The notes under the pieces were generated by a model. That model saw only the letters and a list, made by a program, of their open reading frames with translations. It searched no databases and was not told the DNA's origin. A stretch of DNA of 64,000 nt, taken from NCBI GenBank assembly GCA_025966135.1, contig JAOPVP010000054.1:539-64538 (forward strand). Direction: 5' to 3'. Every line of letters begins with the position of its first letter. Positions within the stretch are counted from its first letter, which is position 1. This stretch comes from Frankiales bacterium (GTDB lineage: Bacteria; Actinomycetota; Actinomycetes; Mycobacteriales; SCTD01). Both the position numbers and the translations under genes were made by a program. This document shows, piece after piece, positions 6,341 through 31,718 of the stretch.

Positions 6341-6819
6341 ACGACATGAGCAGCACCCTCGAGCACAGCCAGGTCCACGCCACCTTCGTCGTGGAGCGCA
6401 CCTACCCCTCTCCCGTCAAAGACGTCTGGCACGCACTTTCCGACAACGACGCGCGTGACCAGTGGTTCGGCGCCGGCGAGGCTTTCCTCACCACTGAGAA
6501 GTCGCACGACTTCCGGGTCGGGGGCAAGGGCTACGAGGACGGCCAATGGCACGGCGGCCCTCGCTCGGTCTTCAACTCGACCTACACCGACATCGTGCAG
6601 CACCAGCGGATCGTCTTCACCTACGACATGTGGATCGACGGTCAGCACCTGTCGACCTCGCTCACCACGATCGCTCTCCGCGGTGATGGCGACGTCACAC
6701 ACCTGTCCTACACAGAGCAGGGCGTCCACTACGACGGCTTGGACAGCGTCGAGGGCCGCGAAGAAGGCACCGGCGGACTGCTCGACCAGCTCGGTGCCTT
6801 CCTCACCGCCTCCCCGTGA
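6337..6819 (+). CDS. SRPBCC-family (Aha1/BPI-like) protein
   Basis: 160-aa ORF: ATFVVERTYPSPVKDVWHALSDNDARDQWFG...IVFTYDMW. Its start overlaps the stop of the upstream ArsR gene by 4 nt. An ATG at 6346 is an alternative start. Confidence 0.8.
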   Translation: MNDMSSTLEHSQVHATFVVERTYPSPVKDVWHALSDNDARDQWFGAGEAFLTTEKSHDFRVGGKGYEDGQWHGGPRSVFNSTYTDIVQHQRIVFTYDMWIDGQHLSTSLTTIALRGDGDVTHLSYTEQGVHYDGLDSVEGREEGTGGLLDQLGAFLTASP

Positions 6820-27802: not shown

Positions 27803-28411
27803 ATGCAGGTCGACGAGCTGAAGGTCCCCGACTCGTGGGTCTTCACCCCCAAGCAGTGGCCGGACCCGCGTGGCGTCTTCCTCGAGTGGTTCAAGGCGCC
27901 TGTGTTCCGCGACGCGGTCGGCCACGACCTGGCCGTCAAGCAGGCCAACCACTCGGTCAGCGCGAAGGGAACGCTGCGCGGCGTGCACTTCGCCGACGTC
28001 CCGCCCGGTCAGGCGAAGTACGTCTACTGCACCAAGGGCGCCGTGCTCGACGTCGTCGTCGACATCCGGGTCGGGTCGCCGACGTTCGGGGTCAGTGACG
28101 CCGTCCGGCTCGACGCCGTCGACCGCAAAGCGGTCTACCTCAGCGAAGGACTGGGCCACGCCTTCCTGGCACTGACCGACGACGCCAACGTGACCTACCT
28201 GTGCAGCGAGCCCTACAACCCGACCGGGGAGCACGGCGTGCATCCCCTGGACACCGAACTGGACCTGCCTTTCCCCGACGACGTCGAGCACCTGCTTTCG
28301 GAAAAGGACGCCGCGGCGCCGACGCTGGCGGAAGCCCTGGCCACCGGGCTGCTTCCGTCGTACGAGCGGTGCCAGGCGTTCTACGAGCGCCTTCGGAGCA
28401 GCGGCCAGTAG
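27803..28411 (+). CDS. rmlC: dTDP-4-dehydrorhamnose 3,5-epimerase
   Basis: Frame of ORF 27725..28411, starting at ATG 27803. Sequence: PDPRGVFLEWF...TLRGVHFADVPPGQAKYVYCTKGAVLDVVVDIRVGSPTFG...GLGHAFLAL. Confidence 0.88.
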   Translation: MQVDELKVPDSWVFTPKQWPDPRGVFLEWFKAPVFRDAVGHDLAVKQANHSVSAKGTLRGVHFADVPPGQAKYVYCTKGAVLDVVVDIRVGSPTFGVSDAVRLDAVDRKAVYLSEGLGHAFLALTDDANVTYLCSEPYNPTGEHGVHPLDTELDLPFPDDVEHLLSEKDAAAPTLAEALATGLLPSYERCQAFYERLRSSGQ

Positions 28412-28683
28412 CGCAGGGGCCAGTAGCGCAGCAGCACCCGCGCCTCCACATCGGCGACGCCCGTGGGTCCCTCCACGAAGGGGTTGTCCGAGGTCAGTGT
28501 CCAGCCGCCGTCCTGCTCCGCGACGGCCCGCTTCACGACCAGCAAGGAGGGTCGCGAGCGGAAGCGCGCGACCACCAGGTCCCCTGGGCGAACGCGCGCC
28601 CCGCGCCGGACCACCAGGCAGTCACCGCCCCGCAGAGTCGGGACCATCGAGGGCCCGGTGACAAGCACGGTCCCCATGCGCAC
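28381..28683 (-). CDS. sodX: S26-family signal-peptidase-like Ni-SOD maturation protease
   Basis: C-terminal part of ORF 28381..28998. GTG 28683 or ATG 28677 gives MGTVLVTGPSMVPTLRGGDCLVV...LLVVKRAV. It is divergent from sodN. Its last 31 nt overlap the rmlC end. Confidence 0.75.
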   Translation of the reverse strand: MRMGTVLVTGPSMVPTLRGGDCLVVRRGARVRPGDLVVARFRSRPSLLVVKRAVAEQDGGWTLTSDNPFVEGPTGVADVEARVLLRYWPLRYWPLLRRRS

Positions 28684-28737
28684 GGCTACCCCTTTGCGGA
28701 CTAGGGTCGAGGAAACCCCGACCAGGAAGGACACATC

Positions 28738-29133
28738 ATGGTGTTCCTCAAGCCGAAGACCGTCGTCTCCGCCCACTGCGATCTGCCATGCGGCGTCTAC
28801 GACCCCGCCCAGGCGCGCATCGAGGCCGAGTCGGTCAAGGCGATCCAGGAGAAGTACCAGGGCAACGAGGACCCGGTGTTCCGCCAGCGCGCCGTGCTCA
28901 TCAAGGAGCAGCGGGCCGAGCTCGTGAAGCACCACCTCGCCGTGCTGTGGCACGACTACTTCAAGGCACCGCACTTCGAGAAGTACCCGCAGCTGCACGC
29001 CCTGTTCAACGACACCATCAAGCTCGCCAGCGGTACCGGCAACAAGCAGTCGATGGACCCGGCCGACGGCCAGAAGCTCCTCGACGGCATCGCGCAGATC
29101 GACACCATCTTCTGGGAGACCAAGAAGGCCTGA
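28738..29133 (+). CDS. sodN: Nickel superoxide dismutase precursor
   Basis: 131-aa ORF. A 14-aa propeptide (MVFLKPKTVVSA) is followed by the Ni-hook HCDLPCGVYDPA. RBS is AGGAAGGA. Confidence 0.95.
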   Translation: MVFLKPKTVVSAHCDLPCGVYDPAQARIEAESVKAIQEKYQGNEDPVFRQRAVLIKEQRAELVKHHLAVLWHDYFKAPHFEKYPQLHALFNDTIKLASGTGNKQSMDPADGQKLLDGIAQIDTIFWETKKA

Positions 29134-29134
29134 G
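29115..29134 (+). repeat. attL-like direct repeat (last sodN codons plus stop)
   Basis: GGAGACCAAGAAGGCCTGAG, identical to 30625..30644. It encodes ...ETKKA-stop of sodN. Confidence 0.8.
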
Positions 29135-29162
29135 AATGCCCGTGGGTCTCTGACCTGCGGCT

Positions 29163-29753
29163 TTACCCTTCGGATGCCCTCTCGGTCCGCACAGAGTCCG
29201 CAAGCGGACCGAGAGCGGCGTCCATCACCTTCCTCGTGCGGTCCTCGTCACCGGGCCACAGGTGCGAGTAGACCCGCAGCGTGATCGCCGCGGACGAGTG
29301 CCCGAGGACCGTCTGCACCTGCTTCACGCTCGCACCGCCGCTGATCAGCGCCGACGCCGTGAAGTGTCGGAGCGCGTGCGTGTCGAAGTTCAACGGGGCG
29401 CAACGACCCTCCTTCTTGGCGGCGGCGACCTCGGCGGGGGTCATCCGCGCGAGTTCCTCAGCAGTCAGTGCCGTGGCCGACAGGGTCGCCTTCCACACCG
29501 GGTTCCACTGCCTGAACGTCAGCGGCTGACCGGCCTCGGTCGTGAACAGCGCCTCGTCGGACGGGTACGCCGCGAGGGGCGCCGCGAGCTGGTCGATGAC
29601 GACCTGACCGAGCGGCACGGTCCTCGTGCTCTTGGGCGTCTTGGTAGGCCCGACCGTGCCGTCCTGCAGCCGCTGGCGTTCGACCCGGACGGTGGTGTCC
29701 AGTGGGACGCGGTGGGTTTCAGGTATCACGGTATCGCCCCTTCCAGGCGCCAC
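29163..29753 (-). pseudogene. Tyrosine recombinase/integrase, N-terminally truncated (C-terminal catalytic half only)
   Basis: The 196-aa ORF has HALRHFTASALI and LGHSSAAITLRVYSHL (H-x-x-R, then His and catalytic Tyr). The N-terminal core-binding domain and the first catalytic Arg region are missing. Confidence 0.8.
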
Positions 29754-29797
29754 TCTGGCTAACGGCGAAGGATTTCCTCCGCAGTCGGAGGTTGAGC

Positions 29798-30268
29798 ATG
29801 AATCGCAAAGTGTTAGGCATCCTGACCACAGTGCTGGCGATGCTGGCGCTGCTGGCCATGCCGGCGAACGCGCAGCCCGCCCGGTCGTTGAGGATCACGG
29901 GTTTGTCCGCTGCCGTCGGTTCCGGACTCATCAACCTGACCGGCACGTTGCACTGCAAAGTGCCCGCGGGCGACCCGATCCTCAACCCCAACTACGTAGT
30001 CACCCTCGTTGATGCGCGGGCCTTCCAGCCCGGTGTGAGCACGGAACAGGGCGTCAACAACAGCAAGGGTGTCTTCCGGTGCGCCGACGGCGCCTTCTCT
30101 GTGCTGATCTTCCCCCCGGACTACACGCCGCGATTCGTGGCGGGCAAGAAGACCGAGATCAAGTTGCTCATCCTGGCCTGCCCCCCCGACCAGCAGTTCC
30201 CGACCGCCAACTGCTTGTCCTTGCAGTTGGACCAGACCTTGCGCACCACCGCGTTCGTGCCTGCCTAA
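29798..30268 (+). CDS. Small secreted Cys-containing protein of unknown function (island cargo)
   Basis: Frame of ORF 29702..30268. ATG 29798 follows GGAGG. Signal peptide MNRKVLGILTTVLAMLALLAMPANA-QP. The mature part has 4 Cys. I recognise no family. Confidence 0.65.
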   Translation: MNRKVLGILTTVLAMLALLAMPANAQPARSLRITGLSAAVGSGLINLTGTLHCKVPAGDPILNPNYVVTLVDARAFQPGVSTEQGVNNSKGVFRCADGAFSVLIFPPDYTPRFVAGKKTEIKLLILACPPDQQFPTANCLSLQLDQTLRTTAFVPA

Positions 30269-30624
30269 GACGGGTGTAGTCCTCGACCCTCACGCGGAGG
30301 TTCCTCGCCCGGGTCCTTGATCAGCGTGCAGATCAGACACGTCTCCTCCGCAGCGGGGTCCAGGCAGAAGATGCTGATGCCGATGCTGCTGTGTCGGGGC
30401 TCGCGTCCGTTGTCGTGCGCGTCAGGATCGCACCAGGGATGGGCAGGTGCTTCGTGCGTTCAGGGCCTTCCTCCAAATCGGTTTTGTGCCCGGGTCCAGT
30501 CCGCAGAGAGTCCGCAAGACTGTCTAACGAGTTCGTCGCTGTTCAACTTCTCCCAACGGCAAAGATGCAGGTCAGAGGGCATATCCAGCACTAGCCAACG
30601 ATTGCCAACCACGCGGGACTAGTT

Positions 30625-30644
30625 GGAGACCAAGAAGGCCTGAG
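30625..30644 (+). repeat. attR-like direct repeat (second copy of the sodN 3' end)
   Basis: GGAGACCAAGAAGGCCTGAG, followed within 10 nt by the strong terminator. Confidence 0.8.
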
Positions 30645-30653
30645 CACTCCGCA

Positions 30654-30696
30654 CCAGCCCGGCTCCTCACCCGAGGGGTCGGGCTGGTTTGCTTTG
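30654..30696 (+). terminator. Rho-independent terminator, probably the original sodN terminator
   Basis: A 15-bp stem pairs 30654..30668 with 30673..30687 (two G-U pairs) around the loop ACCC. It is followed by TTTGCTTTG. Confidence 0.75.
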
Positions 30697-31245
30697 CGGG
30701 TGACTGAGATCTGGGTCGTCAGGCATGGCGAGACGGAGTGGTCGAGAACCGGGCAGCACACCGGACGCACCGACCTGCCCCTGCTGCCCGAGGGCGAGGA
30801 GATGGCCCTCGCGCTGAAGCCGAAGCTCGACCGCCCGTGGGCGCTGGTGCTGTCCTCCCCGCTGCAGCGCGCCCGTCGCACCGCCGAGCTGGCTGGCCTG
30901 ACGCCAGTCCTCGACGACGACCTGATGGAGTGGGACTACGGTCCCGCCGAGGGACGTACGACGGCGCAGATGAGCGTCGAGAGCCCGTGGACCGTGTGGG
31001 GCGAGCAGGTGCCGCTGGGCGAGACCCTCGAGCAGGTGGCCGAGCGGGCCCGGAGGGTGCTGGCGAGGCTCCCGACCGGCGGTGACGTGTGTCTCATCGC
31101 GCACGGCCACATGCTGCGGGTGCTGACGGCGGTCTACCTCGAGCTGCGACCGGTGGACGCCAAGCACTTCGTGCTGAAGCCGTGCGGCATCGGCGTACTA
31201 GGACATGAGCACACGTGGCCGGCACTGAAAGGGTGGAACGTGTGA
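30694..31245 (+). CDS. Histidine phosphatase (phosphoglycerate mutase-like) family protein
   Basis: 183-aa ORF with the RHG motif IWVVRHGETEWS, then LSSPLQRARRTAE and IAHGHMLR. The start (TTG 30694 or GTG 30700) is uncertain. Confidence 0.85.
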   Translation: MRVTEIWVVRHGETEWSRTGQHTGRTDLPLLPEGEEMALALKPKLDRPWALVLSSPLQRARRTAELAGLTPVLDDDLMEWDYGPAEGRTTAQMSVESPWTVWGEQVPLGETLEQVAERARRVLARLPTGGDVCLIAHGHMLRVLTAVYLELRPVDAKHFVLKPCGIGVLGHEHTWPALKGWNV

Positions 31246-31718
31246 TCCGACTCGCCACACCCGCCGACGTGCCGGTCGTGCTACAGCTGGTCAAGGAGCT
31301 CGCCTCCTACGAACGCGAGCCGGACGCGGTGCGCGCCTCCGAGGACGACGTGCACGCGGCCCTGTTCGGCCCGGACCCGGTCGCCAGCTGCCACGTTGCG
31401 CTCATGGACGACGAGGTGGTGGGCTTCGCCCTCTGGTACCGGACCTTCAGCACCTGGCAGGGCAAGCCGGGGATGTGGCTCGAGGACCTGTTCGTGCGAC
31501 CTGAGGCGCGAGGCAACGGGCTCGGCACGGCGCTGCTCGTCGAGCTCGCCCGCACAGCCGTCGCACGCGGGTGGATGCGTTTTGAGTGGTGGGTCCTGGA
31601 TTGGAACGAGCCGGCGCAAGGCTTCTACCGCTCGCTGGGCGCCCGGCCAGAGGACGCCTGGACCGTCTGGCGCGTCGACGGGGAGGCGCTGCAGTCCCTC
31701 GCCGCCGGCCAGTCCTAG
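31242..31718 (+). CDS. GNAT-family N-acetyltransferase
   Basis: ORF 31215..31718. GTG 31242 overlaps the upstream stop. Acetyl-CoA motif: VRPEARGNGLGTALLVELARTA. Confidence 0.85.
   Translation: MIRLATPADVPVVLQLVKELASYEREPDAVRASEDDVHAALFGPDPVASCHVALMDDEVVGFALWYRTFSTWQGKPGMWLEDLFVRPEARGNGLGTALLVELARTAVARGWMRFEWWVLDWNEPAQGFYRSLGARPEDAWTVWRVDGEALQSLAAGQS

Follow-up and report, generated by a model that had tools for sequence, protein, structure and literature searches.

Within a 64-kb stretch of a Frankiales bacterium genome (contig JAOPVP010000054.1; hereafter the window, whose coordinates are used throughout), a 1,510-bp repeat unit begins in the last codons of sodN, the gene for nickel superoxide dismutase (Ni-SOD). 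We find that this unit is very probably the remnant of a tyrosine-recombinase element that integrated at the last codons of sodN and was later internally deleted. A first-pass annotation had proposed a decayed integrative element at the 3' end of sodN, and that proposal is supported by empty sites in related genomes and by relatives of the element that reside at sodN.

The repeat unit and its empty sites

Two exact copies of the 20-mer GGAGACCAAGAAGGCCTGAG, and no more, are present in the window (29115-29134 and 30625-30644), forming a perfect direct repeat that brackets 1,490 bp. Identity between the copies ends at 20 bp on both sides, and 100 dinucleotide-preserving shuffles yielded no match to the 20-mer, even with two mismatches allowed. 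Within the left copy are the final 17 nt of sodN together with its stop codon and a single nucleotide beyond. Past the right copy, after 8 nt, stands a 16-bp G+C-rich stem (30653-30688) followed by a T-rich tail, with a folding z-score of -5.1 against shuffles. The first-pass annotation had described both features, a perfect repeat 1,510 bp apart whose first copy completes sodN and a strong terminator just beyond the second, and both descriptions hold. A tRNA or tmRNA gene as the target was ruled out, as there is none in the whole window.

Between the repeats lies a tyrosine-integrase gene whose 3' end is 29 bp from attL and of which only a C-terminal fragment remains. The 196-aa fragment matches Pfam PF00589 (E=1.2e-12; 48.4 bits vs. 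a cut-off of 27.1), with the match confined to profile positions 58-168 of 172. A tblastn search with a 315-aa relative, P0082, aligned its residues 159-314 to window positions 29702-29169, and residues 1-158 had no match anywhere in the window. The truncation is therefore real and not a frameshift artifact, and we rejected a frameshifted full-length integrase, whose N-terminal half is found nowhere in the window. The remaining codons contain no stops and no frameshifts, and the reading frame upstream of the fragment runs into an opposite-strand open reading frame (ORF) that has no integrase similarity. In an alignment of the fragment with 19 relatives (A3), the window copy keeps the lysine of GPTKTPKS, the H-x-x-R of HALRH, the histidine of LGHSS, and the tyrosine of VYSHL. 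The box I arginine of GLRIGE, nearly invariant in this alignment, falls in a gap, the window sequence starting after it; the copy thus has PF00589 homology and an incomplete set of tyrosine-recombinase catalytic residues. The relatives carry Phage_int_M/SAM_3 or Integrase_N_phage domains, and the window copy is without these N-terminal domains. Lacking the box I arginine and the N-terminal DNA-binding domains, the window integrase cannot be active, and we regard it as a family member by descent whose sequence predicts catalytic incompetence. This agrees with the first-pass description of an integrase reduced to its catalytic C-terminal half. ORF, Pfam, and PHROG annotation revealed no Xis, replication, relaxase, or packaging gene between the repeats.

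We searched for empty sites using the histidine-phosphatase gene that flanks the unit. The closest homologs of this phosphatase (77%-80% identity) lie on five contigs (L089-L093), all of which keep the window's gene order and lack the segment, with a gap of 33-124 bp between sodN and the phosphatase gene. The sodN coding end in these sites reads ...TTCTGGGAGACCAAGAAGG(C.)-stop. A terminator-like hairpin comes immediately after the stop in L089-L091 and L093, four of the five contigs; one example, GCAGCCCGTCCCCT...AGGGGACGGGCTGCTTTGCT, resembles the CCAGCCCGGCTCCTC...GAGGGGTCGGGCTGGTTTGCTTTG that the window carries past attR. This placement of a terminator directly after sodN identifies 30653-30696 as the original sodN terminator. 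The contigs also provide the comparison that the first-pass annotation had proposed, a relative in which the sodN stop leads straight into the hairpin (here in four of five) and then into the phosphatase gene, and they place a presence/absence polymorphism exactly at the repeats. As a separate observation, sodN in L092 (4876-5000) ends one codon shorter, in WETKK-stop, and is followed by a 124-bp spacer with no clear terminator stem; the sodN 3' region therefore varies even without an insert.

Related integrases and att sites at sodN

We identified 217 homologs of the integrase fragment at E<=1e-5, the full-length ones being ~300-390 aa long. A scan of species genomes (one genome per species) yielded 354 relatives, and the genomic context was examined for the best 80. 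Of these 80 species genomes, 72 have sodN downstream of the integrase; the two genes directly adjoin and converge in 69 (23 loci outside Streptomyces and 46 Streptomyces loci). The non-Streptomyces carriers include Nocardioides, Marmoricola, Dermatophilaceae, Phycicoccus, Lapillicoccus, Saccharopolyspora halophila, Geodermatophilaceae, Nanopelagicales, and Jatrophihabitantaceae. Cultured strains with intact elements include Saccharopolyspora halophila JCM 16221 (L029), Nocardioides lianchengensis CGMCC 4.6858 (L015), Streptomyces flavovirens JCM 4578 (L037), and S. atroolivaceus NRRL ISP-5137 (L045). Intact relatives of the kind that the first-pass annotation had suggested looking for thus exist, as full-length integrases convergent on sodN. 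P0082 itself, 53% identical to the fragment, lies 30 bp from the sodN stop, again convergent, on four metagenome contigs (L001-L004). Its L002 copy belongs to a 5,555-bp element with a perfect copy of the 20-mer GGGAGACCAAGAAGGCCTGA at each end. The closest relatives with readable context, P0006 (63% identity) and P0004 (64%), both abut sodN and sodX. Isolated phages and plasmids in the collections searched contained no integrase more than ~35% identical and no characterized relative; their best matches, at ~33%, came from Arthrobacter, Gordonia, Rhodococcus, and Mycobacterium phages and from Tsukamurella, Rhodococcus, and Streptomyces plasmids.

Independent relatives use the same target, with repeat-bounded elements present in at least eight other loci (Table 1). 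The core-bounded elements measure 3.2-9.2 kb in L007, L018, L029, L060, L088, L012, and L040, and ~1.8 kb in L086. All of the repeats have in common GGAGACCAAGAAGG, the codons of the conserved C-terminal W-E-T-K-K of Ni-SOD. Another small remnant is the L086 element, whose integrase is a 177-aa stub and whose attR core has lost 1 nt; in its predicted structure, it closely parallels the window remnant. The tandem arrays in L040 and L086 indicate that accretion happens at the sodN site. These arrays, the empty sites, and the varied element backbones (described below) argue against one ancient, vertically inherited insertion.

We compared the layout of the left arm over the 76 sodN-adjacent loci listed. 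Nearly all of them carry CTGACCTGC at +16 to +19 from the sodN stop (with at most one mismatch), and most have a tandem arm-type repeat, GTCCGCA-N4-GTCCGCA, at +51/+52. On the right side, a repeat of this kind precedes the attR core by ~110-130 nt in L002, L007, L029, L088, and L012, and by ~145 nt in L060, where the copies overlap; in L002, L007, and L018, GCAGGTCAG lies ~50 nt ahead of the core, the same distance as in the window. In L018, the arm repeat is changed to GTCCTCA on both arms, and this covariation argues that the arm repeats are putative binding sites for the element's own integrase. All four arm motifs stand at their expected positions in the window. The two arm-type repeats, which match at 20/20 and 19/20 positions, are the sole matches in 64 kb, with 0.18 expected; they differ at one base (CACAGAG vs. 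CAGAGAG). With all four motifs and both cores intact, the cis-acting sites are complete, and the only visible lesion of the element is one internal deletion.

The left-arm repeat is enclosed in a long inverted repeat (29172-29223), a hairpin with a 19-bp stem that stands 40 nt past the sodN stop and has no U-tract. Folds of comparable stability, most of them at -38 to -63 kcal/mol, are predicted at the equivalent place in most of 21 related elements from outside Streptomyces, with a few compensatory changes across the 21 relatives. Judging from the folding predictions, this hairpin may terminate both convergent genes, sodN and the integrase gene. According to the first-pass annotation, sodN transcription now reads into the island; with so strong a hairpin 40 nt past the stop, such read-through is not established. 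With each insertion, a stress-response gene receives a new 3' untranslated region and a new terminator, which raises a question for sodN expression. We also observed that the bases encoding the integrase C-terminal peptide (..DAAL..LADSVRTEAAS; 29163-29225) are the same bases that form the P' arm repeat and the long inverted repeat, an overlap also present in the corresponding stretch of L002, L007, L016, and others. Conservation of this peptide may reflect constraints on DNA or RNA rather than protein function.

Table 1. Features of the sodN locus in the window and core-bounded elements in other loci
Feature	Locus	Position or size	Strand	Remarks
sodN (nickel superoxide dismutase; target gene; intact, 131 aa)	Window	28738..29133	+	Pfam Sod_Ni E=1.4e-43, profile 2-127/127
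attL core, left copy of 20-bp direct repeat	Window	29115..29134	+	Contains family-wide core GGAGACCAAGAAGG
CTGACCTGC motif, left (P') arm	Window	29150..29158	+	Inverted partner of 30567-30575; kept in relatives
Truncated tyrosine-integrase gene, C-terminal 196 codons	Window	29163..29753	-	Homology spans 29169-29702; Pfam PF00589, alignment, tblastn
Long inverted repeat (hairpin) enclosing left arm-type repeat	Window	29172..29223	+	-39.3 kcal/mol, z -8.2
Left-arm (P') arm-type repeat GTCCGCACAGAGTCCGCAAG	Window	29185..29204	+	Inside integrase C-terminal codons (LADSVRT, minus strand)
Orphan ORF, secreted 156-aa protein with four Cys	Window	29798..30268	+	GC3 0.88; no Pfam/PHROG match
Noncoding right part of element, including right (P) arm	Window	30269..30624	.	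No ORF with coding signature
Right-arm (P) arm-type repeat GTCCGCAGAGAGTCCGCAAG	Window	30499..30518	+	19/20 identical to left-arm copy
GCAGGTCAG motif, right arm	Window	30567..30575	+	Inverted partner of 29150-29158
attR core, right copy of 20-bp direct repeat	Window	30625..30644	+	Exact repeat of attL core
Original sodN terminator	Window	30653..30696	+	16-bp stem and T-rich tail; displaced 1.5 kb by insertion
Histidine-phosphatase gene, host flank	Window	30694..31245	+	Pfam His_Phos_1 E=1.5e-40; query for empty sites
Repeat-bounded element	L007	7,952 bp		
Repeat-bounded element	L018	8,960 bp		
Repeat-bounded element	L029	8,036 bp		24-bp repeat
Repeat-bounded element	L060	8,805 bp		27-bp repeat
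Repeat-bounded element	L088	7,130 bp		
Contig starting and ending with core	L012	9.2 kb		
Three cores, tandem array	L040	4954/7848/11012		

Probable origin of the remnant and known parallels

Under the reading we favor, an integrase would have recombined attP with attB at the end of sodN. The element's attP would have included a sodN end of its own (core GGAGACCAAGAAGG, codons W-E-T-K-K); because it carried this copy, integration would have restored a complete sodN at attL and moved the native terminator 1.5 kb downstream, behind attR. A later internal deletion would then have removed the N-terminal half of the integrase, with its box I arginine and DNA-binding domains, along with the remaining backbone. 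What was left over would be the C-terminal integrase stub, an orphan gene for a secreted protein with four cysteines (the 4-Cys protein), and both att arms.

The backbones found with related integrases hint at what the parent may have been. Two IMG/VR contigs (L094 and L095) carry an integrase, repressor, primase-helicase, TerL, portal, and major capsid protein in <=16 kb; the 8-kb L029 element has an integrase, a helix-turn-helix (HTH) protein, an AAA_25 replication protein, and an HK97 capsid; and L002 has an integrase, a truncated TerL, an Xis-like HTH_17 protein, and an S78 prohead protease. Compared with the core set of phage-inducible chromosomal islands that form capsids (cfPICI; integrase, regulator, primase, TerL, portal, capsid, and connectors in about 10-19 kb), L094 and L095 carry this set and L029 and L002 carry it in part, and by their predicted genes all four resemble capsid-forming phage satellites. 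The Streptomyces locus L061 encodes an integrase, an Xis-like protein, DUF3631, and a MobA/VirD2 relaxase, a predicted gene content that resembles that of an integrative mobilizable element (IME); annotation of 10 kb of L061 revealed no FtsK-like gene, and neither did that of the other loci annotated. The parent of the window remnant was probably a capsid-forming satellite-like or mobilizable element of 5-16 kb, a type that we infer, since no backbone gene is left in the window.

Several points weigh against an integrated and then deleted element. Excision or a circular form cannot be demonstrated from sequence alone, and the exact remnant is present in one genome only, limiting assessment of its age and of selection on it. 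The far end of the Streptomyces elements lies beyond the 10-kb flanks examined. Searches of related elements with tblastx and blastn found no counterpart of the 4-Cys gene and its surrounding sequence in any of them. The G+C contrast with the host is small (0.650 for the element vs. 0.705 for the whole window). Here the first-pass annotation, which had called the G+C content clearly lower, was right about the direction and overstated the size: the drop is modest, only 29754-30624 is lower (0.623), and the integrase part (0.69) is not below its surroundings.

Because its arms and cores are intact and its integrase is dead, the remnant could not move alone, and excision or comobilization would be possible only by a related integrase acting in trans. 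It retains attL and attR and has lost integration and transfer genes, features by which its sequence fits the definition of a cis-mobilizable element (CIME). It also appears to leave two usable target copies for further insertions. One may then ask whether the segment is a working nonautonomous element that hitchhikes on an incoming related integrase and excisionase, with the 4-Cys protein as cargo. The perfect cores, the intact arm repeats, a single deletion as the only lesion, integrase codons free of stops and frameshifts, the normal coding signature of the 4-Cys ORF (G+C at third codon positions, GC3, 0.88), and the tandem or accreted arrays at sodN in L040 and L086 all speak for such an element. 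However, a recent deletion predicts intact att sites equally well, the 64-kb window holds no full-length family integrase, and the databases searched contain no second copy of the remnant or of the 4-Cys gene and hence no sign of spread; we consider this explanation unlikely.

More doubtful still is a composite origin, in which two related elements inserted successively at sodN, after which a deletion spanning the boundary between them joined one element's left end to the other's right end. Such a history could account for the one-base difference between the arm repeats and for the right two-thirds of the segment, which is unrelated to any family member, and it has a precedent of sorts in the tandem arrays and extra integrase-C-terminus stubs at sodN in L040, L086, L063, L064, and L077. 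Yet there are only two cores, with no degenerate third between them when two mismatches are allowed, and a single element with one internal deletion needs fewer events. The tandem arrays at sodN elsewhere make both mobilization in trans and fusion of two insertions possible. Finally, ancestral host sequence that relatives have lost, with the repeat a local duplication or a matter of chance, would fit the occurrence of the exact segment in one available genome only, but is excluded for practical purposes: the same core bounds independent elements in other genera, the segment contains a phage-type integrase stub and conserved att arms, relatives have a clean junction with the terminator directly after sodN, and no such repeat is expected by chance.

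An integrated and later deleted element at a gene of this kind has counterparts in well-known systems. In E. coli, the lambdoid prophages phage 21 and e14 occupy the 3' end of icd and supply a replacement end, and e14 is a defective remnant at that site. The sodN elements likewise use the 3' end of a protein-coding gene and supply a new end, and differ in integrase lineage, host, and target. A clade of integrases dedicated to one conserved protein-coding gene is known for dusA; that report describes very diverse islands with the integrase as their sole common feature, and a minority of relatives in other genes (Farrugia et al. 2015, PMC4482086). The sodN int/att module similarly occurs on satellite-like, relaxase-bearing, and prophage-like backbones and has a sub-clade at another gene. 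The likeness is one of description, and the two differ in target (sodN 3' end vs. dusA 5' end) and in hosts (Actinomycetota vs. Proteobacteria).

The CIMEs were defined for derivatives of streptococcal ICEs (elements that are integrative and conjugative) and IMEs, and their mobilization was shown experimentally (PMC5704250). The window segment is like them in its dead integrase and intact cores and arms, and accretion-like arrays are found at sodN in other genomes. This putative CIME differs in its parent, probably an actinobacterial phage satellite or mobilizable element. Among actinomycete ICEs (AICEs), pSAM2, SLP1, and pMEA300 are ~11-17 kb long, carry a tyrosine integrase next to att, and duplicate and regenerate the 3' end of their target; the best characterized AICEs target tRNA genes, and the review that describes them makes no mention of sodN or superoxide dismutase (PMC2440964). 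The sodN elements differ from AICEs in their target and in the MobA/VirD2-type relaxase of the Streptomyces elements, with no FtsK-like Tra seen in the annotated loci. For phage satellites, a survey gives a median cfPICI size of 14 kb and places most satellites in Proteobacteria and Firmicutes, with only some in Actinobacteria (PMC10085698). By the genes annotated, L094 and L095 (<=16 kb) and L029 (8 kb) are like cfPICI in gene set and size, whereas the window remnant retains none of the cfPICI genes.

Integrases specialized on a protein-coding gene are thus already known and the mechanism is ordinary; what is new is the sodN target. We found no literature report of sodN or Ni-SOD as an attachment site, a provisional result given that most subscription journals lay outside the search. 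It agrees with the first-pass annotation, which was not aware of sodN having been described in this role, and an integrase family dedicated to sodN has seemingly not been described before. We lean toward a broader interpretation, in which the remnant is the trace of an undescribed Actinomycetota integrase clade specific for the last five codons of sodN. Such a clade would ride on at least three kinds of backbone and hold its P' arm sites and a hairpin within the integrase C-terminal codons; its decayed copies would be mobilizable in trans, and the site would stay open to reinsertion. If this is true, sodN would join tRNA genes and dusA as a recognized hotspot, and new int/attP tools would follow; the 49 sodN-bearing Streptomyces genomes examined already carry the attB core where sodN ends. 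Integrating vectors for Streptomyces might gain a new int/attP pair from this family. An integrase convergent on sodN, together with the core, could also serve as a marker for small mobile elements and for likely phage satellites of Actinomycetota, a group with few cataloged satellites to date. The interest lies in the family-level pattern rather than in the remnant itself.

Remaining contents and further loci

The segment also holds the two other components listed in the first-pass annotation, a gene for a secreted 4-Cys protein and about 350 bp of noncoding DNA, both of which are seen between the repeats. The 4-Cys protein has a clear Sec signal peptide (cleavage around ANA-QP), and its ORF has the signature of ordinary coding sequence. 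The protein matched no family in Pfam or PHROG, and an indexed search of 5.8 billion clustered proteins returned only the protein itself. An exhaustive search gave two weak matches to beta-rich repeat proteins, one of them with MBG_2 domains. A single-sequence AlphaFold2 model was beta-rich as well, with a pLDDT of 62, too poor for a fold search. The gene is either cargo of the parent element or a later acquisition. The ~355 bp to its right (30269-30624) have no convincing ORF and align with the right end of the L002 element at the arm motifs only.

Around the segment, the window's gene order is substrate-binding protein, permease, ABC ATPase, dTDP-sugar isomerase, sodX, sodN, His_Phos, and GNAT, with the sodX peptidase gene upstream of sodN and divergent from it. 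An Rfam search of 28000-31500 returned no RNA family, even at E<=1, and a consensus promoter scan of the region found no promoter.

Two integrases were rejected as sodN-adjacent: P0016 (L005) adjoins a DUF3455 gene, and P0100 (L087) ends at a contig edge. In L087 (6796-8543), the integrase is split into a 311-aa ORF with Integrase_N_phage and a 180-aa ORF with the catalytic domain, a split by frameshift and hence a decay route different from the deletion in the window. An integrase sub-clade in L021 (10940-11518, minus strand), L026, and L030 resides at the 3' end of another gene, which encodes a 192-aa protein ending in ...FKKAKKAEAKAEAV. The end of this gene contains CCTTCTTGGCCTTC, two mismatches from the sodN core, and by sequence comparison this looks like a target switch to a similar lysine-rich coding end.

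Further loci show departures from the simple arrangement. In L086, a second integrase-C-terminus-like stub lies beyond attR (6700-6810). In the Streptomyces loci L063, L064, and L077, sodN lies ~4.3 kb beyond the integrase, and another arm repeat stands next to sodN. In L011 (1689-1740), L073 (10982-11030), and L097 (6932-7030), integrase, arm, and core are followed by non-sodN sequence in an attP-like junction, and these loci may be unintegrated or rearranged copies. The core-bounded contig L012 and the L011 and L073 junctions hint at a circular attP form, a hint that is suggestive only. L097 lies inside a 46.8-kb IMG/VR provirus call.

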